Source of the DNA: Pseudomonadota bacterium
GTDB taxonomy: Bacteria > UBA10199 > 2-02-FULL-44-16 > JAAZCA01
Assembly (NCBI GenBank): GCA_043798915.1
Contig: JAZDOG010000089.1
Location: forward strand, 33,158-97,157
Length of the DNA: 64,000 bases
Direction of reading: 5' to 3'
The position numbers and the translations under genes were made by a program. The notes beneath the pieces were generated by a model that saw only the letters and a program-made list of their open reading frames with translations, was not told where the DNA came from and ran no database searches. Below are positions 3,386 to 62,071 of this stretch, one piece after another (the stretch's first letter is position 1; every line of letters starts with the position of its first letter).

Positions 3386-4513
3386 CTATCGCTTTTTAAA
3401 TAAACCCTTTATCCCCTTCTCGATCTTGAAAGGAATGGCCTTGGCGGGCACCGGGGCAAGCTCCTTCAACTTGCCAAGCGCCATCTCAGGCGCTGCGGCA
3501 ACCGAACGGCGCGTCAATTCATCGAAGAAACCCTTTGAGACCGCAGTGGAGACCGAAAAGTCGCCGGACGAAAGATCGCCGTTTACGGATGTATCGACGC
3601 CGATCGGACCGGATTGCGACAGGACAAATTTGTTCAGGACGTCGCCCTTGATCCCGCCGCCCACTTTAAGGCCGGAAATGGTCGCATGGTACGTGGATAT
3701 AAGCCTGTCCTTTTGCGCGCGAGCGCGGCTTGTCACGGCTATCGAACCGCCCATGACAGGGAGCGACACCGAACCGGCATAGAACGAAGCGAATGTCGTG
3801 ATCGGCGTGCTGGCAAGCCCCCCTGTCAGGTCAAAGGAGATTCCGTCGCCGAACACATCCGCGCTGCCGGCCACCGAAATGACGCCTCCCGCCTTGCCTG
3901 CATTCGCTTTGAGTTTAAACGATGTCGGCAGCTCATCTGCCCTCGCTGCAGCCTTGATATTTTCGACCGAAATATCGACATTTTCAAGATCGAGATGCGA
4001 GCCTTTCACCTGATCACGATAGGCAACCGCGCCATGCTCTATCTCTATTTTATCGACGGTGATGGGCCAGGATTTGGATTTGCTTTTCTTGTCGACGCCA
4101 CTCTCTTCAACCTTTTTCTTGCTTCCGTCGCCCAGCGAGAGCACGTCCCAATTTGAACTCTTTATCCCGGTTATCACGTATGAAATGGAGGGCCCCTTCA
4201 ACGTAATCTTTCGCGCGTGCAAGGCGCCCCGCAAAAGGTCAAGCGGTGCAACTCTTATGGTGAGTTCATCGGCGGAAGTGAGAAGTGATTTTTCATCCTC
4301 GTGCCCAGCAGGATAAATCCTGATGCGTTCCAGTTTTAACTCGGCCCGGGCCAGAGAAGCTTCATAACCGCCGATATCAAGGGCCAGGCCCGCAATGTTA
4401 TGCCGCCGCTCTTCGATCATCTTTTTTGCGGCGCCGGCACACCAGACACCGATGGCGATAAAAACAGCAACCACCCCGACAACTATCACCGCCACAACGA
4501 TCAATTTTTTCAT
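3386..4513 (-). CDS. AsmA-like / DUF748-type membrane-anchored protein.
   Basis: Start moved to MKKLIVVAVIVV (RBS GGGGGA 6 nt upstream). N-terminal TM anchor followed by Gly/Ser-rich beta-repeat region typical of AsmA-like proteins. Confidence 0.45.
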   Translation of the reverse strand: MKKLIVVAVIVVGVVAVFIAIGVWCAGAAKKMIEERRHNIAGLALDIGGYEASLARAELKLERIRIYPAGHEDEKSLLTSADELTIRVAPLDLLRGALHARKITLKGPSISYVITGIKSSNWDVLSLGDGSKKKVEESGVDKKSKSKSWPITVDKIEIEHGAVAYRDQVKGSHLDLENVDISVENIKAAARADELPTSFKLKANAGKAGGVISVAGSADVFGDGISFDLTGGLASTPITTFASFYAGSVSLPVMGGSIAVTSRARAQKDRLISTYHATISGLKVGGGIKGDVLNKFVLSQSGPIGVDTSVNGDLSSGDFSVSTAVSKGFFDELTRRSVAAAPEMALGKLKELAPVPAKAIPFKIEKGIKGLFKKR

Positions 4514-4581: not shown

Positions 4582-7086
4582 TTAACTGACGCTCTGTTCT
4601 TCCTCCAGAGGAGAAGCCGACAGAGGCAGATAGAAGTAGAAGCGGCTCCCCTTTCCGGGAACGCTCGTGACGCCGATCGTTCCGCCGTGCAACTCCACCA
4701 GCTGTTTCGCAATCGGGAGCCCCAACCCCAGCCCCTTCTCGCCGGGACCGTATGTCCTGCCTATCTGATGGAACCTCTCAAACATCGACCGCTGTTCATC
4801 GGGAGAGATGCCGACGCCGGTGTCGGACACCGAGACCTCGATCCTTCCGGGCTTCTTTGCCACGGAGAGCGAAACCTCTCCGCCGCGCGGCGTGTAGCGG
4901 ATGGCGTTGCCTAGCAGGTTCGAGACGACCTGGCCTATCATGTTCGGGTCGCAGTAGACATCGACGGGTTCCTTGGGGAGCGTCAAGGAAAACTCAAGCT
5001 CCTTGTGGGCGATGAGGTCCTTCATGGACTCGCAGGTTTTTTCAATCAGAGGGATGAAATCGACAAGGGATCGCTGCGGCGTCGCCCGGCCGGTGTCCAG
5101 CGCTGCGATGTCCAGGAGGTTGTCGATGACGCCCCCGAGGCGCCTGATATCGTCGCGGCACATCTCGAGATGGGTTTTGAGCTTGTCCGTGATGACGCCG
5201 GTCACGCCAGCCAGGGCGCCCGACACGACATTGCTGATTGCGGCCAGCGGCGTGCGGAGCTCATGTGAGACGTTGGCGATCAGCTCGTGTTTGGCCTGGT
5301 CGAGCTCCCGCTGGCGGGTGATGTCGCGCATCACGAGCATCGAGCCGATCCTCTCTCCGCCCTTTGCCGCCACCGGCAACGTTTCGACGCGTATGGCGTG
5401 CTTCACGACGGCGCCAACCATGACTTCGTAAGAGACGCGCTCCTGCAGCCCACCCTCCCCCTCCGATTTCGGAAGGTTCTCGAGGTTCAGCCCGAGGGCC
5501 TTCGACAGCATCATGACTTCGTTAGAGACGCGCTCCTGCAGCCCGCCCTCCTCTTCCGACTTAAGAAGGCTCTCGAGGTTCACCCCGAGGGCCTTCGACA
5601 GCATCATGGCTTCGTGAGAGACGCGCTCCTGCAGCTCACCGTCCCCCTCCGATTTCAGAAGGCACCCGAGGTTCAGCCCAAGGGCCTTCGACAGCATTCC
5701 GATGTCCACCTCCGTATCCCTGCCCAGATTCAGCATGCTGCGCGCCGCAGGGTTGATCAGCAGGATACTGTTCCCCTCAGAGAACATCACGAGACCGTCG
5801 GTCATCGAGAAAACTGCCGCGGTGGTCTTCTGCTTTTCCGCCTCCGCGACTGCGCGCGCCTTCTGGTTGTCGTCGAGGATGGAGAGGAGGGCCTTCTGAT
5901 AGTCTTCGAGGTCGGCCGCGCGCGCCTGGAGTTTTTCCACGAGCGAGATGGTTTCGCGCATATCGCGCACCACCGCCACTACGCCGCGCAGTTCGCCGGA
6001 GAGGTCCACCATCGAGGCTGCTGACAAGTTGACGGGCATCGTTTCTCCGCCCTTGGCCCTGAAAGACGCCTCGACGTCGAAAATGTTCCCTCCCGCAAGG
6101 AGCCCTCGCCATCCCTCTTCCGAGAGCGGGCCGGATTTGCGATCTGCGAGCAGAAGATCGACCGGCCTGCCGAGCAGCTCCTGTTGGGTGTAACCGAGCA
6201 GCTCCTCTGCTGCCCTGTTGACCGTATGGACCGACTTGGTCCGGTCGATGACGATCAGGGCCTCGTTCATGGAGCCGACGATGTTGTCCACATAATCCTT
6301 GGAAACGGTGGATTGCCTCAGCGCCATCGCCATGGAATTGAACGCGACCGCCAGCTCGCCAATCTCGTCTTTGCTGGCGACCTTGAGGGTTATGTCGAGG
6401 TTGCCGGCGGCGATACGCTTCACCCCATCCTTCAGCGCGGCCAGCGGTTGCAGGATGCGCCGGCTGAGGAACAGGGCGATCGACACGGCAAGCAACAGGA
6501 CGACGACCGCTATCGCTGCAGAGACCTTCAGATCGTCATTCTCCGCCGCCTGGATTCTGGCCCTTGTGTGAACGACCCGGGCAAACCCGATCTTTGTCGG
6601 CGGCGCCTTTTTCCCCTCCGGGGATTCCTCGGGCGCTTCAACTGCGCTCCCTTTTTCAGCGGGGATCAGCACCGGGGCATAAAAATCATCCGCGTCTTCA
6701 GTCGCAAAGCTTATTTGCCTCCCCATGAAAGGTTCTTGAGCGGTGGAAAATCTGGAAAGGGTCTCGTCGGTCAAAGGGAGTTCGACCACCCTGCGCGACA
6801 TCTTTTTGATGACCTCTCCCTTGACTTCGTAGACGGCGGCAAAGATCGTCCCCTCATCCTTCATGATAACGGCAAGCGGCTCGTCGATGAGCTTCATATC
6901 GGACGCCTGCACACCGATCCCGGCGCTCTGCGCCAGCATGCTGACCAGCACGGTGCCCCCTTCAAACTGTTGTTCGTTGAGAGCGCTGCTGATGTGGCTC
7001 GTGTGATAGGCAAAAAAGGATATCGTCAGAAGAGAGATGAGAGCGACGATGCTGAAGAGAATCTTGTTTGCCAGGCGCCTTCTCAT
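4582..7086 (-). CDS. Sensor histidine kinase: N-terminal TM, periplasmic region, second TM, HAMP, PAS, three tandem 31-aa repeats, HisKA (HELRTPL) and HATPase_c (GLGLGL...G.G..F).
   Basis: Conserved H-box 'SHELRTPL', N-box 'NLLGNAIRYT', and G1/G2 boxes 'DTGVGI' and 'GLGLGLPIAK'. Confidence 0.85.
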   Translation of the reverse strand: MRRRLANKILFSIVALISLLTISFFAYHTSHISSALNEQQFEGGTVLVSMLAQSAGIGVQASDMKLIDEPLAVIMKDEGTIFAAVYEVKGEVIKKMSRRVVELPLTDETLSRFSTAQEPFMGRQISFATEDADDFYAPVLIPAEKGSAVEAPEESPEGKKAPPTKIGFARVVHTRARIQAAENDDLKVSAAIAVVVLLLAVSIALFLSRRILQPLAALKDGVKRIAAGNLDITLKVASKDEIGELAVAFNSMAMALRQSTVSKDYVDNIVGSMNEALIVIDRTKSVHTVNRAAEELLGYTQQELLGRPVDLLLADRKSGPLSEEGWRGLLAGGNIFDVEASFRAKGGETMPVNLSAASMVDLSGELRGVVAVVRDMRETISLVEKLQARAADLEDYQKALLSILDDNQKARAVAEAEKQKTTAAVFSMTDGLVMFSEGNSILLINPAARSMLNLGRDTEVDIGMLSKALGLNLGCLLKSEGDGELQERVSHEAMMLSKALGVNLESLLKSEEEGGLQERVSNEVMMLSKALGLNLENLPKSEGEGGLQERVSYEVMVGAVVKHAIRVETLPVAAKGGERIGSMLVMRDITRQRELDQAKHELIANVSHELRTPLAAISNVVSGALAGVTGVITDKLKTHLEMCRDDIRRLGGVIDNLLDIAALDTGRATPQRSLVDFIPLIEKTCESMKDLIAHKELEFSLTLPKEPVDVYCDPNMIGQVVSNLLGNAIRYTPRGGEVSLSVAKKPGRIEVSVSDTGVGISPDEQRSMFERFHQIGRTYGPGEKGLGLGLPIAKQLVELHGGTIGVTSVPGKGSRFYFYLPLSASPLEEEQSVS
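5419..5697. repeat. Three tandem 93-bp direct repeats inside the histidine-kinase gene, encoding MLSKALG(L/V)NL..L.KSE..G.LQERVS.E(A/V)M.
   Basis: Period 93 bp with starts at 5419, 5512 and 5605. About 85-90% identity between units, in frame. Confidence 0.8.
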
Positions 7087-7111
7087 CTATCTGTATCCCC
7101 CTGCTTTTTCT

Positions 7112-7378
7112 CTATTTCCCTGCCTTGCCACCCTCTTCGCCAGGCATCGGCATCCCCATTCCAGGCATGGGCCGCATGCAGTGACCCCTGTAGTACTGTG
7201 CACACATGACCACCTGGCCGATGAGCAGGAGCGCGGAGACGAGGATCGCAACCCATGCGATGAACTTGGCGAACTTCTGGCAGCAGATGCCCGCCTTGCC
7301 CTCGACCCATATGAGCAATGCCGTCGATGCGACGAGCGCCAGAACAGCTAATGCAGCACCACTGTGTCCGTAACCCAT
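7112..7378 (-). CDS. Small membrane protein (two TM helices) with a Met-rich C-terminal tail (MRPMPGMGMPMPGEE); possible Cu(I)/metal-binding peptide.
   Basis: ATG at 7378 with AAGGGGGAA RBS 4-5 nt upstream. Hydrophobic segments AALAVLALVASTALLIW and FIAWVAILVSALLLIG. Lies upstream of and co-directional with the histidine kinase. Confidence 0.35.
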   Translation of the reverse strand: MGYGHSGAALAVLALVASTALLIWVEGKAGICCQKFAKFIAWVAILVSALLLIGQVVMCAQYYRGHCMRPMPGMGMPMPGEEGGKAGK

Positions 7379-7802
7379 GGTTCCCCCTTGGAAAGTGTAC
7401 GTCATTTTGGCAGCTGATCTTGTAACATACAAAACCAGCGGCGGCAATCGCCGGATTTCACCCTGTCGATGAGGGGGCCCGCTGTTGCCTGGCAGCCCGG
7501 CGGGCTTCCTTCTTCTGTTGTTCGATGCGGGCGCGCTCCTCGGCGGACATCACTGTTTGGGGAGCAATCCTGTCGAACCGGTCCCTGCCCCTTATGCGAC
7601 CTTTGCAATTGCATGGGATTGCCGCGTCGCTTCGCTCCTCGCAATGACATCAGATGACTTCGGAAACAGCCTCTGAAGGGGAGAGGAAAATGAGCGTGTG
7701 TCCTCTATTGTCATTTCTTTTATCGGGTGCTAGGGTTTCGGCTCTTTTGGTCGAGGGTTGCAACATATTGAAATAACTAGCAAAGAGGAGCACGGGGGCC
7801 GC

Positions 7803-19124: not shown

Positions 19125-19224
19125 TAAGGGTTAGTTGCTGTCAATTATTTGATAAACAATCCATTTGTCTTTGATAACGTTATTGAGAACTGGATAAGCA
19201 ACGGAACCGATGAGGTGCCGATGG

Positions 19225-19372
19225 ATAAATAATGGGACCAGCATGCCCTCGAGCGGCCTCTGGAGGCGACGACATCCAAGCCTGCAATTTTGCGTCGCCG
19301 AAAGGGCAGGCGAGCGAGCGGCGTTTGAGCGAGCGAGACGAAGCGAGAGGGCATGCTGGTCCCATAATTTAT
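19225..19372. repeat. Long imperfect hairpin. 17-bp perfect inverted repeats GGGACCAGCATGCCCTC / GAGGGCATGCTGGTCCC (extendable to about 26 bp) flank 96 nt of GAGCGAGC-rich sequence that contains a nested 7-bp hairpin.
   Basis: Arms at 19234-19250 and 19347-19363. Lies immediately downstream of the hemB stop, between hemB and the AT-rich ATPase gene. On the minus-strand transcript it is followed by AUUAUUUAU. Confidence 0.5.
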
Positions 19373-20348
19373 CTAGTCATCAATAATCTGGCGAAATCGC
19401 GGGCGAAGTAGGTCAGGATGATATCGGCGCCGGCGCGGCGGATCGCGGTGAGCGTCTCCTCCATCGCGCGGCGCTCGTCGAGCCAGCCGTTCGCGGCGGC
19501 GGCCTTGATCATCGCGTATTCGCCCGAGACCTGATAGGCGGCAAGCGGCACGCCGACCGCCTCGCGCGCGCGTGAGATTATGTCGAGATAGGGCATGGCT
19601 GGCTTGACCATCACGATGTCGGCGCCCTCCTCCACATCCTCTATTATCTCGCGGATCGCCTCCCGCGCGTTGGCGGGATCCATCTGGTAGCTTCTGCGGT
19701 CGCCGAACGCTGGCGCGGAGTGCGCCGCGTCGCGGACTGGCCCGTAGAAGCAGGAGGCATACTTTGCCGCATAGCTCATGATCGCCGTGTCTTCGAAGCC
19801 CTTTGCATCCAGCCCCTGCCTGATCGCCGCGACGCGGCCGTCCATCATGTCGGATGGCGCGACGATATCGGCGCCGGCCTTCGCGTGCGCAAGCGCCATC
19901 GCCGAGAGCAACTCGAGGGACGGGTCGTTCAAGATGCGCCCGCTCCTGTCGGTCACGCCGCAGTGGCCGTGGTCGGTGTAGGCGCAGAGGCATACGTCGG
20001 TGATGATAGTCGTCGCCGGCACGGCTTCCCTGATGGCGCTGACTGCGCGAGGAACGAGGCCGTTTGGATCCGTGGCCCCGGATGCCTTCGAATCTTTTTT
20101 ATCCGGCACCCCGAAGATGAGGATCGAGCCCACCCCTTCCTTCGAGGCGTCGCGGACCTCCTTCGTCAGCTCGTCGACCGAGAGATGGCAGATGCCCGGC
20201 ATCGAGGAGATCGGCTTTCTGACGCCCTCTCCCTCCACCACGAACGCAGGATAGACGAGCATCGATGGATCGACGCGCGTCTCACAGACGAGCGAACGCA
20301 TCCTCTCGCTCACCCTGAGCCTTCGCAATCTGGTTTGAGGAAATGACA
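19369..20348 (-). CDS. hemB: Porphobilinogen synthase (delta-aminolevulinic acid dehydratase).
   Basis: True start taken as MSFPQTRLRRLR. Active-site and zinc region 'DVCLCAYTDHGHCG'; 'SDMMDGR' and 'SYAAKYASCFYGPVRDA' motifs. Confidence 0.9.
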
Positions 20349-23610: not shown

Positions 23611-24993
<1,383 letters not shown>

Positions 24994-25012: not shown

Positions 25013-26437
<1,425 letters not shown>

Positions 26438-26443
26438 GAATTC

Positions 26444-26523
26444 CTCCCCCTCCTTTGTAAGGAGGGGCTAGGGGAGGTAGATCCATCGCTGACTATTTTG
26501 ATCTACCCCACCCTTCCCTCCCC

Positions 26524-26541
<18 letters not shown>
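26444..26541. repeat. Copy A of an approximately 95-bp imperfect palindromic repeat element (two terminal CCCTCC..TTTGTAA..GGAGGG hairpins around an inverted GGGTAGATC / GATCTACCC core).
   Basis: Shares an identical 41-nt block (GATCTACCCCACCCTTCCCTCCCCTTACAAAGGGGAGGGTT) with a second copy at 59371-59465. Overlaps the stop codon of the upstream activator gene and the RBS of the next. Confidence 0.55.
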
Positions 26542-27936
<1,395 letters not shown>

Positions 27937-29113: not shown

Positions 29114-29286
29114 ACGGTAACGAGATTGCTCGTCATCGATGGTCTACACGAAGGGGTGACAAATAGCCAGCGTAATTTTGACGCCTGACCTAACTGGTCT
29201 ATTTTAAATGTTATTTAAAAATATTCCATCTGGTGGGTGTGTTAAAAATAACCCGGATGACCGGAAGGAAAAACCGCTAGTTCACA

Positions 29287-32200
29287 CTATCGCGCTGGCT
29301 GAAAGGTGAAGGAAATATCATCTGAGACCTCGCTCTTTTTCACGAGGCCGCGAGGCAGCTTCTTCCTTCTTGCAATTTGGCATAGACGCTCTCCGAATTC
29401 TTTTGAATCACCTTCCGTGCCCTCACCAACTTTGCATCCAACATCTCCGGAAGGATCGACGGTATATTTAAGGCTCCCCGTGGCCGCGAAGTCGGGATTC
29501 CTTTTCAAAAAACGCTCGTAACAATACGAGAACTCCTTCTTCAGCTCATCCCTAAGACGCTGGAATATAACCGCAGAATCTCCCTTCGACCACTGGCTCA
29601 ATTTCCCCAGCTCGCCAGTCAGGCGTTTGATTGCCCCCTTGACTTCACCTCTTCTGTTTCTGTCAGCTGGTCCTCGCAGCTCCTCCAGCGTGATCTTTCC
29701 GTATTCCTCCAGAGCGCTTTTGATATCCCGGATCTTTATATCCCGAAGGTCGTTCAGGCGCGCCTCTTCCTCGAACGAACGCGCCAGATAATAATGAGCA
29801 CTGGCTACAAATGAGGGCGCTTTTGCGCGGATAGTCGAAGCAGTTGCGGAAAAAGACGGGGATTCCATGTCCCTGAAAAACTTCTGATAGGAAGCGGTTG
29901 CCTTATCATAGTAACCTACCCCCATAGCAAAATAAAGACGACCCTGACAGGCAGAGGACTGGATAAAATCAGGATGGAGCCCGCGAAACTCTTCGAGGGC
30001 CTTAATCTCCTTTTCTTTGTCGTCGTCTGATTGGCTGGTATACGACCAGCCGAGATCCGCTCTGGCAGCGAGGAGTTTGGCCTCGGCTTCCTTTTTTTTG
30101 TCTTTCATCTCAAGCTCTGATGCTATCCTGATGATCCCCTCGAGGGTGGAAATCAATCTCTCTTGCTCCGCGATGGATTTTGACTTCTTCGCATCACTTG
30201 AGAATCGTTTAAAGGTCACTTTGGCTTCATCTGTGAATGTTTTAAGGGCTTTGTCGCGCGCCTCGTCTATCTCTCTGTCACGCTCATTGGCCCATTTTTT
30301 CTGCTCGTCGGATGGCTGAAGCCCTCCATATCTAATAACCAGCCCCTTGGCTGACTTGATGCAATCAATGACACTTTTATAATTGCGCGCATGCACGGCT
30401 TTCTTAACTCCATCAAGTGAGGCCCGCACCTCCTCGAGAACCTCCTTTTTTGCCTTTTCATTTCTCTCTGCCTCGGTCAGCGGGGGTGGAGGTGGTTTTG
30501 GCACGACTGGTGCAGGCACAGGCGCCGGCGGTTTGGGCGGAGGAGGCGGAGCGACATGTGGCAGTTGGGCAACCGGCGCATTTTTAGCAGGAGGTGCAAC
30601 AGGAACGGTCGGCCTGAGAGCGGGAGTCGCGGCTGCAGGAGGTGCTGGAGCAACCGAAGGTTTTGTTGGCGGCGGAGCAGGCGGTGCAGCGGGAGCGGTC
30701 GGTTTGGGAGAGGGAGTGCCGGCTGCCGGAACCGGTGAACGGGGTTCGGTTTTGTCCTGAGGGGCAAGCCCAAGCAGCTTTGCTATATTCACATCAACCA
30801 TCTGCCTCGTCGCCCCCTTCGGACCACTGAATAGATAAATTTTAGGCTGGTCGGGGACCTCTGCCCCCCCCCTGTTGACGCCCGGCCAGTTCACGCTGTC
30901 GACAAACACGAGCGGCACCAGAGGCTTGCCATTCTCCACCTGTTTGTCCTCAAGCGCGACAAGCCTGCGCCTGAGTTCAGAGGTCTTCTCCTTGCCGGCC
31001 CCTTCCGTCGGAGCCACGAACACAATGACGCGCTCGTCTGTATTGTAGATTGCGCCGGCCGCCTCGCTGTTGGCAACTTCGACAAAACCCACCGGCTTGT
31101 AAGTTTGTGCCTTCCATCTGCCGCCATGCTGGGCGACCTTATAGATGTGGTATTTGGCTTTTTTGGATTCTATCTCCCTTGGTTCAATGCCGAGTTTTCG
31201 CAGAAATCCGCGGCGAAGACTTTGGAGTGTTGCCCCATCATGGCGCTCAGGCATATGCGGGATGAAGAAATAACGGCGCTTGATTTGCAAGTCCCTGCCC
31301 TCGCTGTAGAGACGATAGGTCAAATCGCCCGCCTGCGTATCGGTCGGATCACCGACGATGACAAACGCATCGCCGGCGCCCGGACCGAAGTGGGCCCCAA
31401 AATGACGATAATCGATATAGCAGAAACCATTCTCGTCGGTCGTCTCGCCGTGCTTCTTTATCAGTTCCTCAACATCGACATCTGGCACTTCGATCGGGGC
31501 CTCGATGCCCACAAAGCGGCCGTCCTTGATATCCCCTTCGAACTGGATCTTTGCGTATTTCGCAGTGGGCTGCGGCATCAAGATCCCAAGCCTGTTGGCA
31601 ATCTGTCTCCCCCGCTTGCTTGAAATATCCACGACGGCGATCATGCCCCTGTTCCCTGCTTTATCTTTCGTCGGCTCAGTATTATTCACAAGCTTCACAA
31701 AATCTTCTTCTCTGAAGAACGCGCCCGTGACAAAAACGGTGACGGAGCTTTTCCATTCATTTTTGTAGTTATCAAGCGTGAGTTCGACCACTCCGGGCTT
31801 GAAGGCCTGCTCCGGCTTCAGGGCAGGCGCCGTCGGGCCGGCGGGAGGGAACTCGGCATCTGGGACCTCGGAATGACTCACAAGCGCCTCCCGGATATCG
31901 AAGTCCTCACAGTGGCGATTGCCGGCGCTGCCGGTGCAGATTAAGAATGCCCGGCCGCTTAATTGCACATGGGGCAGATCCGCGAGTTTTCCCTTCAACT
32001 TCAATGGCACATAGATCGCCTCGACGTCGAGCTTTCCTCCGATGTCCTTTTTATTTATGAGTCTATCGTCCAACTTGGCCATGATCTTCTGGTTCTTGGC
32101 TTCCTTGTCCCGGTCCTCCTCCTCTATGACCACCAGAACATTGCCCGATGACTTTAAGATGTAGCGTTCGAGATCGCCGGCGGATTTGATATCCGTGAAC

Positions 32201-33864
32201 ATCACGACCTTGCGCGAAGTCTTCCTGTCCCACAGCTCATTTATCTTCGCCTGTCCCCTGGCAATCATCTCCCCCCAATTTTTCTTATCATCCGCATTCC
32301 CGGTCTTCTCATTCAACTTGGCCGCATCGTTGAATGCAGCGAGGGCCGCATCCTTGTCGCCCTCTTTCCCTGTCCCCTGAAAGACCGCTTTGAGAACAGT
32401 GGCCTTCAAGAAATGGGCGTGTGCCTTGACGGACTCCGAATCCCCTTCCTCGATATGGCCCAGATAAGCCTCAACGAATTTGCGGGCCTGCTCCAGCTCC
32501 AGGTTTACCTTGCCGGCATCCTGCGCGGCTTGAATCGCACCATCCTCAAAAATCTTCGCCGTCTTGAAATATTTCTCGATCTTCCCATCGATGTCCTTCA
32601 GCATCCTGGAGCGGACATCCGAACGTTTTTGCTTCGCAGCCAAAACCTGCTGGAACTCTTCGTCATTCTGTGTCTGCATGTCTCTGAGTCTATTATAAGC
32701 GTCATCAAGGACGGCAAAAACGGTGCTCATCGCATCCAGGTGGCGGGGATCGATCGCGAGCGCCTTCGCCTTTCTCTCCTGCTCCGCAATCATCTTATCG
32801 ACCGCACCCAGCTCTTCCTTGAGCTTTTTCGCCGCCGCCTTGTCTATCTTCGGGGGTTTTGCAGCAGGCGGTTTGGCCGCAGCCGCATCTTTCTGCGGCG
32901 TCTCTGGTTTCTGGACAGCGTCGTCCTTGAACTTCCTGGTTCCGAAACTGGCTTCAAAACTGAATTTGGCCGGACCGGCTTGATCCAGCTTCTCCGCGGT
33001 CCTCTCATTAGGAACCCCGCGCGGTGCAAACTTTGAGAGGAGAATCGGGTCCTTCTCGACTATGAAACGAGAGGCATCGGGATTATCTATTCTTACCTGA
33101 TCCAGGTATTTTTTGAGACCCCTGTCGCTCAAGTCGGCTGCGATGATCACCACCTTGTTAGCAGATTTGATGCTCTCCTCAATCTCGTCGGGCCCGATCA
33201 CAGGTATTCCGTACATTTTTTTTGCAGGCTTTGCGGCGGGCGGCTTTTCTGCGGCTGCCGCCTTGTCCGCCTTCTGAGGAGCCTCGGGCTCCTTGTCAGC
33301 ATCGTCCCTGAACTTCATGCTTCCGGAAATGAGTTCAAAACTGAATACGGACGGACCGGCCTGATCCAGCTTGTCCGCGGCCCTCTCCTGCGGAACACCG
33401 CGCTGCGCAAGCTTCGAAAGAAGACTCGAATCCTTTTCGACTATGAAGAGACAGGCTTCGGAATTGTCTTTTTTTACCTTATCCAGATTTTTTTTGAGGC
33501 CCTTGTCGCTCAAATCGGCCGCGACGATCACCACCTTGTCGGCGGAATCGATGCTCTTTTGAAGCTCGTCGGCCCCGATCACGGGTATTCCGTACAGGTT
33601 CTTTATCTTTGTTCTTGCCTTTGTCGGAACCTGGCATGCTCCAAAGAGTTTGATGATCGAGGGAAGCTGGCTGGCAAACTCGCCCTTTGTGGAAAACGAC
33701 CTGTTAAACTTTCCATCGCAGGACTCGAATTCAAATTTTCCGCCCGATTTCGTGTCGTGCTCAAACTTCTCCATCTGCTCCTCGCAATAGGAGCGTTTGT
33801 CCTCGTCGGCCGGACTGGAGTAAGTCTTTTTGCAGACATCGAAGGGGCCGCTTCCACCTGTCAT
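29287..33864 (-). CDS. Very large (about 1525-aa) multidomain protein of unknown function. N-terminal 4-Cys region, two tandem about 125-aa duplicated modules, coiled coil, three alpha/beta (thioredoxin-like?) modules, about 110-aa Pro/Ala-rich linker, alpha-helical TPR-like C-terminal domain.
   Basis: Single uninterrupted ORF. Start moved to MTGGSGPFD (RBS GGAGGAG 6 nt upstream); the listed GTG start is spurious. Duplicated module YGIPVIG.DE...KVVI.AADLSD.GLKK seen twice. Low-complexity linker PAPPAPPPTKPSVAPAPP... Confidence 0.7.
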   Translation of the reverse strand: MTGGSGPFDVCKKTYSSPADEDKRSYCEEQMEKFEHDTKSGGKFEFESCDGKFNRSFSTKGEFASQLPSIIKLFGACQVPTKARTKIKNLYGIPVIGADELQKSIDSADKVVIVAADLSDKGLKKNLDKVKKDNSEACLFIVEKDSSLLSKLAQRGVPQERAADKLDQAGPSVFSFELISGSMKFRDDADKEPEAPQKADKAAAAEKPPAAKPAKKMYGIPVIGPDEIEESIKSANKVVIIAADLSDRGLKKYLDQVRIDNPDASRFIVEKDPILLSKFAPRGVPNERTAEKLDQAGPAKFSFEASFGTRKFKDDAVQKPETPQKDAAAAKPPAAKPPKIDKAAAKKLKEELGAVDKMIAEQERKAKALAIDPRHLDAMSTVFAVLDDAYNRLRDMQTQNDEEFQQVLAAKQKRSDVRSRMLKDIDGKIEKYFKTAKIFEDGAIQAAQDAGKVNLELEQARKFVEAYLGHIEEGDSESVKAHAHFLKATVLKAVFQGTGKEGDKDAALAAFNDAAKLNEKTGNADDKKNWGEMIARGQAKINELWDRKTSRKVVMFTDIKSAGDLERYILKSSGNVLVVIEEEDRDKEAKNQKIMAKLDDRLINKKDIGGKLDVEAIYVPLKLKGKLADLPHVQLSGRAFLICTGSAGNRHCEDFDIREALVSHSEVPDAEFPPAGPTAPALKPEQAFKPGVVELTLDNYKNEWKSSVTVFVTGAFFREEDFVKLVNNTEPTKDKAGNRGMIAVVDISSKRGRQIANRLGILMPQPTAKYAKIQFEGDIKDGRFVGIEAPIEVPDVDVEELIKKHGETTDENGFCYIDYRHFGAHFGPGAGDAFVIVGDPTDTQAGDLTYRLYSEGRDLQIKRRYFFIPHMPERHDGATLQSLRRGFLRKLGIEPREIESKKAKYHIYKVAQHGGRWKAQTYKPVGFVEVANSEAAGAIYNTDERVIVFVAPTEGAGKEKTSELRRRLVALEDKQVENGKPLVPLVFVDSVNWPGVNRGGAEVPDQPKIYLFSGPKGATRQMVDVNIAKLLGLAPQDKTEPRSPVPAAGTPSPKPTAPAAPPAPPPTKPSVAPAPPAAATPALRPTVPVAPPAKNAPVAQLPHVAPPPPPKPPAPVPAPVVPKPPPPPLTEAERNEKAKKEVLEEVRASLDGVKKAVHARNYKSVIDCIKSAKGLVIRYGGLQPSDEQKKWANERDREIDEARDKALKTFTDEAKVTFKRFSSDAKKSKSIAEQERLISTLEGIIRIASELEMKDKKKEAEAKLLAARADLGWSYTSQSDDDKEKEIKALEEFRGLHPDFIQSSACQGRLYFAMGVGYYDKATASYQKFFRDMESPSFSATASTIRAKAPSFVASAHYYLARSFEEEARLNDLRDIKIRDIKSALEEYGKITLEELRGPADRNRRGEVKGAIKRLTGELGKLSQWSKGDSAVIFQRLRDELKKEFSYCYERFLKRNPDFAATGSLKYTVDPSGDVGCKVGEGTEGDSKEFGERLCQIARRKKLPRGLVKKSEVSDDISFTFQPAR

Positions 33865-34011
33865 GACCTGCTCCTCCAAAAGGGCGTACGGACATCCCCC
33901 CACTTTATTATCGGCAGATTTCCAATAATGTTGCGTCCTTTTGGCTGAAAAATGAACCGATAGCCATCGTCAGCAACGGCTTACGCTAAAATAGACATGA
34001 ATATCAATTAA

Positions 34012-36427: not shown

Positions 36428-37072
36428 TCAGCACTTGATGAGCCGCTTCTCGGTCACTATCCAGTCGAGCTTTCTCCCTCGCACGGCCGTGGGGAGATCG
36501 GGGACGACCTGAAAATCATAGGCGAGCGCGATGCGCTTGCCGCGGAACCCCGCAAGGCACTTGTCGTAAAAACCCTGGCCGAACCCCATTCGCCCGCCAT
36601 GCAGGTCGAAGGCGACGCCGGGGACGATGAGGACGTTCAACGTGTTCAATTCTCGCAACCTGCTCTGCTTTGCTGAGGGTTCCCTCATGCCGACCTCTGT
36701 GAGGCGCAGGTCCTCGAGCTTCATGACGCGGAAAAAGGCAAGGCCGCCGGCCTCTGCATCGACCGCAGGGTAGTATATCTCCTTACGATTCTTGTCCCCC
36801 TCCTGGAAGAGAAGCTCGGTGCGGATTTCATTCTTGAAGGCCGCATAGAGGCCGACCCGCAGGGCCGTTCGAAACTCGCCCATCTGCAGCACGCGGTGCC
36901 CTATTGCATCGCTCGCCTGCTCCACCTCCTCGATCTTCAGTTCATCGCGGGCGGACATCATCCGGTTGTAGAGTTGAAGCTTGGACTGGCTCGACATGGC
37001 TCCATCCTCCTCAATGAATTTCAGGAAGACACCTTTAAGCCACTCGAACTGTGGATGGAAACAACCGAACAA
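36428..37072 (-). CDS. ygfA: 5-formyltetrahydrofolate cyclo-ligase (YgfA/MTHFS). The true start may be MSSQSK at about 36997.
   Basis: Family motifs 'LIVPGVAFD..G.R.G.G.GFYD' are present. Confidence 0.8.
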   Translation of the reverse strand: MFGCFHPQFEWLKGVFLKFIEEDGAMSSQSKLQLYNRMMSARDELKIEEVEQASDAIGHRVLQMGEFRTALRVGLYAAFKNEIRTELLFQEGDKNRKEIYYPAVDAEAGGLAFFRVMKLEDLRLTEVGMREPSAKQSRLRELNTLNVLIVPGVAFDLHGGRMGFGQGFYDKCLAGFRGKRIALAYDFQVVPDLPTAVRGRKLDWIVTEKRLIKC

Positions 37073-37289: not shown

Positions 37290-37764
37290 CGATCATCCAT
37301 CAGTTCAAGCGCCGCTTCAAAATCGCAAAGCCTATAACGCATCCCTTTTAACAGTTCAACTGTGAATTCTTGCCCCTGTATCGCGGGCTGTTCAAAAGGG
37401 CCCAGATGCGAGGCGTCCGACCGAGGCCGGCCGAGTCGTACTTGGATGTACGTCGCAGGCCGCGCCGAGGGAGGAGAACGAAGCAGATGGGCCCTTTTCA
37501 ACAGCCCGCCCCTAAAAAAATCCCCCCGCTTGGGCCGTTTGGTGTCACCATTTTTGAACCCGACTCAATCAGGTGGGTGATCGTATTGCTGCTTTAGGCT
37601 TCCCCACCCCGTCAAAAAGGCCGCACCGCCGGCCTTTCAGAAAGGGCGGGGCATGCACACCACAGCAAGGGACAATCCCCAAAATGGCAATGTCGGTTCT
37701 AAAATTACGACACCGAGGTCGCACCCAGCAGGGGGAAACCCTTGTCCTATGTGAAAGAGCAAAA

Positions 37765-59328: not shown

Positions 59329-59357
59329 CTTGATATTCCTTATAAAGGTCCCATATT
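59329..59357 (+). promoter_or_regulatory. Sigma-32-type heat-shock promoter candidate CTTGATA-N14-CCCATATT upstream of clpB.
   Basis: Matches CTTGAAA-N13-15-CCCCATNT with one mismatch in each box. About 120 nt upstream of the clpB ATG. Confidence 0.35.
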
Positions 59358-59370
59358 ATTGAGGAAGTTA

Positions 59371-59465
59371 CCCTCCCCCTTTGTAAGGGGGAGTTAGAGG
59401 GGGTAGATCGTGCGGAATCTACATGATCTACCCCACCCTTCCCTCCCCTTACAAAGGGGAGGGTT
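59371..59465. repeat. Copy B of the approximately 95-bp palindromic repeat element, located in the clpB leader directly upstream of the clpB RBS.
   Basis: Identical 41-nt right arm and near-identical left arm to copy A (26444-26541). Confidence 0.55.
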
Positions 59466-59479
59466 AAAAGGAGGTTTTC

Positions 59480-62071
<2,592 letters not shown>

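Follow-up and report, generated by a model that had tools for sequence, protein, structure and literature searches.

Two loci of the 64,000-nt stretch analysed here (contig JAZDOG010000089.1; hereafter the window), one at 26444-26541 within an operon of sigma-54 activators (locus A) and one at 59371-59465 in the clpB leader (locus B), are probably copies of an inserted, DNA-level repeat with the triplex architecture of the BoxC repeats of Escherichia coli, and not RNA regulators. We propose that each locus is a small non-coding interspersed repeat in which units (arms) of ~35 nt are placed in inverted orientation with their GTAG/CTAC ends inward. The first two blocks of a unit would form a 9-10-bp hairpin, and the third block would lie antiparallel on the G-rich arm of that hairpin as a third strand, in a purine-motif (class II) intrastrand DNA triple helix. 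The proposal is carried by direct observations: the loci belong to a sequence family, they are inserted relative to the nearest relatives, the three blocks of the unit covary, and the family has no bias in orientation or towards one gene end.

A shared block within an inverted pair of units

Repeat comparison within the window reveals an exact identity of 42 nt between positions 26499-26540 and 59424-59465; the initial annotation had recognised this identical block, with a length of 41 nt that has to be corrected. The 23-nt terminal hairpin CCCTCCCCTTACAAAGGGGAGGG is seen exactly twice, against an expectation of 0 from 100 shuffles. Each 95-bp locus is an inverted pair of ~35-nt units, and both loci fold on either strand into a long imperfect hairpin with hairpin ends, as had been described, with RNA minimum free energies of -52 to -67 kcal/mol and z values of -4.5 to -8.2. 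The right units of the two loci are identical. The left units had been called near-identical, which does not hold, as they carry two different stem types, CCCCTCC/GGAGGGG at locus A and CTCCCCC/GGGGGAG at locus B. The palindrome has the + orientation at both loci and the neighbouring genes lie on opposite strands, so that transcription runs through the two copies in opposite senses.

The sequence is compositionally simple, with runs of C and G, and the likeness could be ascribed to chance or to local duplication of a low-complexity G/C-rich palindrome belonging to no family. The probability of this explanation is practically negligible and we reject it: the 42-nt exact identity stands beside unrelated flanks with 0 expected by chance in shuffled sequence, hundreds of related copies are present in other genomes, and an nhmmer profile of 214 arms from other genomes, with the window left out, recovers the four window arms (E 4e-11 to 1e-9) and no further arm in the 64-kb window. 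The flanks of loci A and B are unrelated in sequence and the loci are therefore not a local duplication, which excludes the duplication with flanking sequence that had been named as a possible refutation.

The units of locus A are laid out as follows.

26447-26480, + strand (G-rich form): left unit, stem type 1 (nhmmer E 4e-11)
26447-26453, + strand: left C-arm CCCCTCC (+TT)
26456-26458, + strand: left loop TGT
26461-26467, + strand: left G-arm (AA+)GGAGGGG
26468-26470, + strand: left linker CTA
26471-26477, + strand: left third block GGGGAGG
26478-26480, + strand: left end TAG
26481-26502, no strand: centre, ATC + 16 nt + GAT, between the inward-facing GTAG/CTAC ends
26503-26538, - strand (G-rich form): right unit, stem type 4, T.A-T variant
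26503-26506, written on the + strand: right CTAC
26506-26513, written on the + strand: right third block CCCCACCC, then linker TT
26516-26523, written on the + strand: right C-arm CCCTCCCC, then TT-ACA-AA
26531-26538, written on the + strand: right G-arm GGGGAGGG

Those of locus B are the following.

59373-59406, + strand (G-rich form): left unit, stem type 3
59373-59379, + strand: left C-arm CTCCCCC (+TT)
59382-59384, + strand: left loop TGT
59387-59393, + strand: left G-arm (AA+)GGGGGAG, then linker TTA
59397-59403, + strand: left third block GAGGGGG
59404-59406, + strand: left end TAG
59407-59427, no strand: centre, ATC + GTGCGGAATCTACAT + GAT
59428-59463, - strand (G-rich form): right unit, stem type 4
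59428-59431, written on the + strand: right CTAC
59431-59438, written on the + strand: right third block CCCCACCC, then TT
59441-59448, written on the + strand: right C-arm CCCTCCCC, then TT-ACA-AA
59456-59463, written on the + strand: right G-arm GGGGAGGG

The family across genomes

All four window arms reduce to GATCTACC-N13/14-CCTTACAAAGG. A scan of one genome per species with the pattern GATCTACC-N12-16-CCTTACAAAGG matched at least 99 genome blocks, and the family-wide counts given below rest on the matches listed from these blocks and on the window. A looser arm definition (CTAC, 14-22 nt, TTACAAA and a complementary stem), applied to the matched blocks, yields at least 218 arms in 21 assemblies and the window; open reading frames (ORFs) around the arms were called with a codon-usage scorer. 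At least 114 arms lie in 304 kb sampled from 'bacterium SO_2017_GW3_31', at least 35 in SKS1.bin41, at least 16 in 'Bdellovibrio sp. FI88_57_8' and at least 10 in one 'Pseudomonadota' metagenome-assembled genome (MAG). Among the matches listed, one or two arms each are found in seven Nitrospirota-labelled MAGs, one of them the closed chromosome OZ242026.1, and in MAGs that carry the labels Nitrospinota, Myxococcales, Desulfobacterales and Deltaproteobacteria. The pattern had no match in viral contigs. Most of the listed arms belong to one groundwater lineage. Synteny at 65-93% nucleotide identity shows several MAGs with different labels to be relatives, so that the labels of the records are unreliable. 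As a separate observation on these records, contigs of JBDRCU01 ('Parcubacteria group', loci L003/L076) and of JBDRBN01 ('Pseudomonadota', L089) are 85-93% identical over 450-670 nt, a likeness of sequence that points to close relatives or to mis-binning.

The interspersed intergenic character that the initial annotation had proposed, under the name of a REP/MITE-like element (MITE, miniature inverted-repeat transposable element), is upheld by these blocks and arms and by the empty orthologous sites at both loci described below. Neighbouring arms enclose ordinary housekeeping genes (NadA, EtfB, Asd, PntAB, FliPQ). The right-arm variant of the window (CCCCACCC-TT-CCCTCCCC) is restricted, among the 218 listed arms, to the two window loci, and a metagenome scan with this variant added one extra copy, a singleton on a JGI metagenome contig (L108). 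At the gathering threshold, Rfam reports 6S RNA alone for the whole window; a scan of both loci by E-value gave sub-threshold matches to generic long hairpins (microRNA precursors) and no known RNA family.

Three-block covariation and a possible triplex

Read on its C-rich strand, a unit consists of CTA, the third block, 2-4 nt, the C-arm (Y), TT-ACA-AA and the G-arm (R). On the G-rich strand the order is C-rich arm, TT-TGT-AA, G-rich arm, a linker of 2-4 nt, a mirroring G-block and TA-G, as in the example oligonucleotide CCCCTCCTTTGTAAGGAGGGGCTAGGGGAGGTAG. Five stem types (types 1 to 5: CCCCTCC, CCTCCCC, CTCCCCC, CCCTCCCC and CCCTCCC) change C-G to T-A with perfect covariation of Y and R, and the five co-occur in single genomes. 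Over 66 distinct arms, 99% of the cells are paired and 66 are compensatory, which was reached by none of 500 shuffles. The third block is, in every stem type, the mirror image of Y, that is, its reverse and not its reverse complement. The match is complete (7/7) in 150 of the 218 listed arms, and in 197 of them if A in the third block is equated with T; when distinct sequences are counted, 82 of 103 have the mirror match, compared with a permutation mean of 29 and maximum of 46. An independent count of parallel change between the third block and R finds 51 cells changed on both sides, again reached by 0 of 500 shuffles, and at most 2 when the blocks are slid by 1-3 columns.

When the third block is laid antiparallel on the hairpin, 1503 of 1526 triads in the listed arms are G.G-C, A.A-T or T.A-T. 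Where the hairpin pair is A-T, 217 of 223 third bases are A or T, a number that drops to 5-19 of 223 once the register is shifted by 1-2 nt. The relation runs on through the TT/AA of the 'loop' and the TA of GTAG, which gives 9-10 allowed triads in all four window arms; for the left unit of locus A, 9 of 9 are permitted by the purine motif when its sequence is read against the triad rules. DNA folding predicts a 9-10-bp hairpin with a TGT loop and an unpaired third block beside it (9 bp, a 3-nt loop and a single-stranded third block in the left unit of locus A), ViennaRNA modelling Watson-Crick hairpins only. The ITxF limits for intrastrand triplexes (stems of 6-15 nt, loops of 1-6 nt) encompass the four window arms and 197 of the 218 listed arms, with stems of 9-10 nt, counting TT/AA/TA, and loops of 3 and 2-4 nt. 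CTAC lies upstream in 218 of the 225 hairpins found in a looser hairpin search, and it is retained by at least 55 of the 62 hairpins without GATCTAC.

Direct or inverted repeats are the known products of replication slippage and of template switching, which are not known to make mirror repeats, and to a symmetric protein dimer the two halves of a mirror repeat would not be equivalent sites. Since none of these accounts for the mirror, a third block lying antiparallel on the purine arm is its simplest reading. The natural covariation of three blocks argues that selection acts on the third block and, by extension, on the triplex or on a single-strand fold closely related to it.

Other sources of the mirror relation were considered and rejected. 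A constraint between the two arms of a pair is not tenable, as partner identity fails in the combinations 1+3, 1+5, 3+4 and 3+5 and the within-arm mirror holds in 116 of 130 paired arms and also in 81 of 88 arms outside detected pairs. The 52 arms with T opposite an A-T pair speak against a pyrimidine-motif or RNA triplex formed by the C-rich strand, an arrangement that suits the purine motif on the G strand but neither of those motifs on the C strand. Nor does the block mimic the 16S 3' end (GATCACCTCC vs GATCTACCTCC), as it varies with the stem type.

Both window copies are insertions

ClpB of the two nearest relatives (L100 and L101) is 84% and 82% identical to that of the window. Their clpB leaders carry the promoter motif (CTTTGAAT or CCTTGAAT ... 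CCATATCT), followed by 27 and 18 nt to the ATG, and are free of the element; the same interval in the window is made up of 13 nt, the 95-nt element and 14 nt. For locus A, orthologous kinase-activator-activator-activator-STAS operons were compared in three relatives, in which the junctions between activators 1 and 2 are 68 nt, an ATGA overlap and 21 nt, and none of these junctions holds an arm. Activator 1 ends in ...KRKIEAEA (...KIKKRKIEAEA) and its stop in two of the three, with nothing element-like after it, and the window activator is 75% identical to one encoded on JBDRBN010000073.1. Because the orthologous clpB leaders and activator junctions of the nearest relatives are empty, both window copies are insertions as judged by sequence comparison. 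The proposed check for a target-site duplication was carried out on ~40 copies and on the filled versus the empty clpB site, and no consistent duplication is evident in either; the TTA found on both flanks of locus B is not reproduced at other copies.

Pairing, placement and turnover of arms

In the listed pairs, CTAC and GTAG stand apart by one of three spacings (2, 7-9 or 19-22 nt), with a few gaps of 11-13 nt in addition. Pairs are heterotypic in 64 of the 65 listed, where 27% would be expected to be homotypic, and type 1 is nearly always one of the partners. The elements are intergenic, and the outward ends of the listed arms face 93 gene starts and 113 gene stops; single arms are oriented with respect to transcription in a ratio of 27 to 20 (p = 0.38), and the arrangement of flanking genes around arms equals the background. 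The window pairs join identical right arms to left arms of two different types. As the right variant is unique to these two loci and the left arms differ, it can be deduced that single arms, and not whole pairs, have been copied or converted within the genome.

Between SKS1.bin41 and SO_2017_GW3_31, which have 70-83% nucleotide identity, most pairs are found at orthologous sites. The arms at such sites may be nearly identical (L033/L088) or may have switched type with all three blocks changed, as in both pairs of L080/L091; at one site a second pair is nested in the first (L077 vs L046), and one pair is missing from a syntenic locus (L052 vs L084). Read from these alignments, arms at orthologous sites turn over through replacement and rearrangement, which agrees with the instability of TMECO loci discussed below.

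Three side observations concern the arms themselves. A 24-nt GC-rich hairpin, GCCTGCC(C)GCCGGC(C)GGCAGGC(GG), lies after TTTGTAA and before the G-arm, at the same point in ~10 arms; it is present in L091 (~6600-6660) and absent from the orthologous L080 (~740-760), and occurs also in L008, L009, L012, L021, L036 and L040. Either it is a second, nested mini-element that enters at a precise target, or a variant of the arm is proliferating. Tail-to-tail arm pairs, with G-arms facing each other 5-8 nt apart, are seen in L001 (~6030-6200), L002 (~270-450), L016 (~4040-4200), L068 and L072, and are bordered on both sides by heptamer arrays (GTGACTG / GTGAATG / GTGATTA and their complements). In L091, the predicted genes at 4737-6230 and 6232-6615 start inside the repeat, with N-termini such as VNTTPPLCKGRMGGVELGLPPLPPPYKGGE... 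and LIYPSPPSPYKGEG....

Our own ORF calls in L091 give element-derived protein starts (PPLCKG, PSPYKGEG), and automatic annotations of the host genomes may therefore carry artefactual N- or C-terminal tails derived from the element.

Relation to BoxC, REP and MITE repeats

E. coli BoxC is the same repeat as PIT (potential intrastrand triplex) and, in a still later description, TMECO (Holder et al. 2015, PMC4666352; Hoyne et al. 2000, as cited in PMC4666352). Its consensus is CCCTCNCCC-N3-6-GGGNGAGGG-N3-GGGNGAGGG, a class II purine-motif intrastrand triplex, and the isolated G-strand folds in vitro into a highly stable triplex, as seen by circular dichroism (CD) and nuclear magnetic resonance (NMR) (PMC4666352). 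TMECO copies are always intergenic, without strand bias, without an associated mobile element and without promoter or terminator activity; each inverted pair unites one type A and one type B copy, as do all five E. coli pairs, and TMECO loci are prone to rearrangement (PMC4666352).

The window family shares with BoxC the same order of three blocks on one strand, a linker of ~3 nt, the TGT loop of several E. coli copies and the G.G-C / A.A-T / T.A-T triads of the class II purine motif. It shares as well the inverted pair with third blocks inward, as at E. coli 164547-164631, and heterotypic, intergenic pairs without strand bias; BoxC itself has no known transposase and no demonstrated regulatory role. 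The TMECO consensus has 0 matches in the window, so the architecture is the same and the sequence family distinct. The stems of the window family have 7-8 G/C pairs plus TT/AA, its conserved inner TAGATC/GATCTA has no counterpart in BoxC, and five stem types co-exist here, whereas E. coli has essentially one stem with two linker types. The family is hosted by uncultured groundwater lineages and Nitrospirota-labelled MAGs, not by Enterobacteria, and in some hosts it is much denser, the 114 arms of the 304-kb sample, which was chosen for its hits, comparing with 23 in the whole E. coli K-12 genome. We found no paper in the literature giving this repeat sequence, nor any work on repeats of this sort later than Holder et al.; the repeats are a previously undescribed sequence family of the BoxC/PIT/TMECO kind.

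It could also be proposed that the arms are ordinary GTAG-tagged REP/REPIN elements, moved on single-stranded DNA by a RAYT (an IS200-like Y1/HUH enzyme) encoded elsewhere, with the third block as part of what the enzyme recognises. The likeness to the units described in the REP/BIME/REPIN-RAYT literature (Nunvar 2010; Bertels & Rainey 2011; Di Nocera et al. 2013, PMC3733652) is considerable: palindromic units of 20-40 nt with GTAG/CTAC at one end (in 218 of the 225 hairpins), occurring as singles and as inverted dimers in many intergenic copies, with sub-families that differ by compensatory stem changes, no evident target duplication and a BIME-like pairing of two types. Inverted dimers with GTAG inside are known as 'TT dimers' in the defined GTAG families, whose GTAG lies 0-2 nt from the stem (Di Nocera et al. 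2013, PMC3733652); here it lies 9-12 nt away, past the linker and the third block. Pairs join different types and their arms assort independently of one another, so that arms rather than pairs are the apparent unit of copying, unlike REPINs, in which two like REPs are copied together, and a mirror relation of 7-8 nt is no known feature of RAYT recognition. The genome richest in copies, SO_2017_GW3_31, does encode a RAYT-like Y1_Tnp protein (L015, 6753-7401, minus strand; PF01797, E 5e-12), but this gene is bordered on both sides (6500-7560) by paired GGTGCCAGGCACC / GTGCCTGGCAC hairpins, not by these arms, and from its sequence context it is a separate REP-RAYT system within that genome. Six-frame searches of ~0.8 Mb of sampled loci and of the window, by regular expression and by phmmer with E. 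coli RayT and the L015 protein, found no RAYT/HUH beyond L015. We consider mobilisation by a RAYT unlikely.

MITEs of the Correia/NEMIS, RUP and ERIC kind resemble the ~95-bp element in their long imperfect palindrome, their insertion into intergenic regions or 5' untranslated regions (5'-UTRs) and the occasional supply of stop codons or ribosome-binding sites (RBSs). They differ in that no target-site duplication is evident here, nor are terminal inverted repeats related to an insertion sequence (IS), and the element has two units that assort independently. From the earlier REP/MITE label, the interspersed element is therefore retained; the copies are no classical MITE, given the missing target-site duplication and IS ends, and the REP/REPIN definition is not cleanly fitted.

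Effects on neighbouring genes and regulatory readings

At locus A, three tandem sigma-54 activators follow a histidine kinase on the minus strand (23611-24993, 25013-26437 and 26524-27936), and the element forms a gene end and an RBS.

26524-26541, - strand: element-supplied gene end, codons KPSPL + TAA stop, of the upstream sigma-54 activator (ORF 26524-27936)
26435-26447, - strand: RBS of the downstream activator (ORF 25013-26437), GGAGG (26447-26443) + AATTC + ATG (26437-26435)

The TTA at 26524-26526, in the loop of the right hairpin, is the TAA stop of the upstream activator, whose translation ends in ...KIKKRKVAARGATKPSPL (also written ...KRKVAARGATKPSPL) before the stop. Its C-terminus is seven residues longer, the final five residues and the stop being element sequence; the initial annotation had the stop right and one codon too few, with four in place of the five of KPSPL. 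It had also placed the RBS of the next activator at the other end of the element, and this RBS, the GGAGG 5 nt ahead of the ATG, is indeed the outer end of the left unit (26443-26447) and lies partly inside the stem.

At locus B, the element lies between a promoter-like motif and the clpB RBS, as had been stated.

59329-59357, + strand: heat-shock-type promoter-like motif CTTGATA-N14-CCCATATT (motif scan, TTGATA...CATATT), conserved in relatives
59468-59482, + strand: clpB RBS AAGGAGG (59468-59474) and ATG (59480), both outside the element

From this arrangement the element would be transcribed within the clpB 5'-UTR. Its predicted hairpin of -64 kcal/mol would start a few nt from the predicted mRNA 5' end, with the RBS outside, and could stabilise the transcript.

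These positions had led to the suggestion of a transcribed cis-regulatory RNA module, acting as a stabiliser or processing barrier in the activator operon and as a thermosensor or translational regulator at clpB. Both copies do lie inside predicted transcripts, their hairpins are stable (-52 to -67 kcal/mol), the element at locus A carries a stop codon and the RBS of the next gene, and E. coli REP hairpins affect mRNA decay. Such a module is nevertheless very improbable and we do not retain it: the two loci are transcribed in opposite senses, the arms have neither an orientation bias (27 vs 20, p = 0.38) nor a preference for gene starts (93 vs 113), orthologous leaders and operons work without the element, no U-tract follows in the transcribed sense, and no Rfam family is matched. 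The T-for-A variants of the third block are, in addition, incompatible with an RNA (pyrimidine-motif) triplex. A thermometer in the clpB leader is rejected on the folding that had been called for, since the -64 kcal/mol hairpin leaves the RBS free and is far too stable to melt on heat shock, and the element is missing from the clpB leaders of relatives. Neither a terminator nor an attenuator can be upheld, for want of a U-tract in the transcribed sense: at locus B the element overlaps no terminator-like site, and at locus A the sole hairpin followed by a T-run is on the + strand, antisense to the operon. The supply of RBSs as a general function was also dismissed, as AAGGAGG is present in every hairpin in both orientations, yet the arm ends face stops (113) as well as starts (93).

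Proposed interpretation as a DNA-level repeat

We therefore return to the BoxC-like inserted repeat. Such a repeat would probably be selfish or neutral at the DNA level, copied or replaced in units of single arms, and its effects on host genes (a new stop with five codons, an RBS, a very stable 5'-UTR hairpin) would be by-products of insertion. A single strand may fold into the triplex in the cell, for instance when unwound at replication or transcription, and the fold may be recognised by a copying or maintenance process. That the mirrored third block is selected precisely because the unit folds into a triplex in vivo and is recognised in this form by the copying or maintenance machinery is a possibility that we advance tentatively.

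Several points weigh against the BoxC-like reading. Double-stranded TMECO DNA formed no triplex, and in vivo dimethyl sulphate (DMS) footprinting left a stable triplex unsupported (PMC4666352). The covariation rests on ~5 independent stem types, and many of the 218 arms are not independent, given the apparent wholesale replacement of arms at orthologous sites. As TTACAAA and GATCTACC were both part of the search pattern, ascertainment accounts for some of their invariance. RNA and DNA folding programs prefer one long hairpin per pair, so that the local fold has to compete with it, and the source genome contributes two copies of the element, a count that covers this 64-kb window alone.

E. coli has been known to carry 'triplex motif' repeats of the BoxC type since the 1990s, and their function, their spread and the in vivo triplex are unsettled; E. 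coli BoxC leaves a functional triplex open, the structure having been seen only in vitro. If the triplex reading is true, the five concerted stem types would be the first comparative (covariation) evidence of a functional intrastrand DNA triplex in bacteria. The family offers many copies, several hosts and five stem variants, which are natural compensatory mutants for biophysical and genetic tests. At the level of the genome, the elements reshape gene ends through stop codons, C-terminal tails, RBSs and long 5'-UTR hairpins.

Other features of the window

A rod-like hairpin of ~127 nt (37381-37511, minus strand) lies directly downstream of the 6S RNA gene (37519-37737, minus) and upstream of the minus-strand ORF 36428-37072, a putative 5-formyl-THF (5-formyltetrahydrofolate) cyclo-ligase by its sequence. 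It is ~80% conserved with L018 (4277-4407) and L040 (1859-1987); RNAalifold on the three sequences gives 44 pairs, 9 of them with compensatory changes, and no Rfam family is found for it at E < 0.01. This hairpin is a candidate structured RNA, which may represent a second RNA like 6S or extend 6S at its 3' end.

Three further repeats were noted. Positions 5419-5697 hold three tandem 93-nt copies, 90% identical and of 31 codons each, which probably encode a repeated module of a minus-strand protein. An inverted repeat (19224-19261 / 19336-19373; GATAAATAATGGGACCAGCATGCCCTC...) has 38-nt arms that are 84% complementary and 74 nt apart, and is unrelated to the element. A 300-nt direct repeat (32891-33190 / 33272-33571, 80% identity) inside a very long minus-strand ORF (29286-33903) suggests an internal domain duplication.

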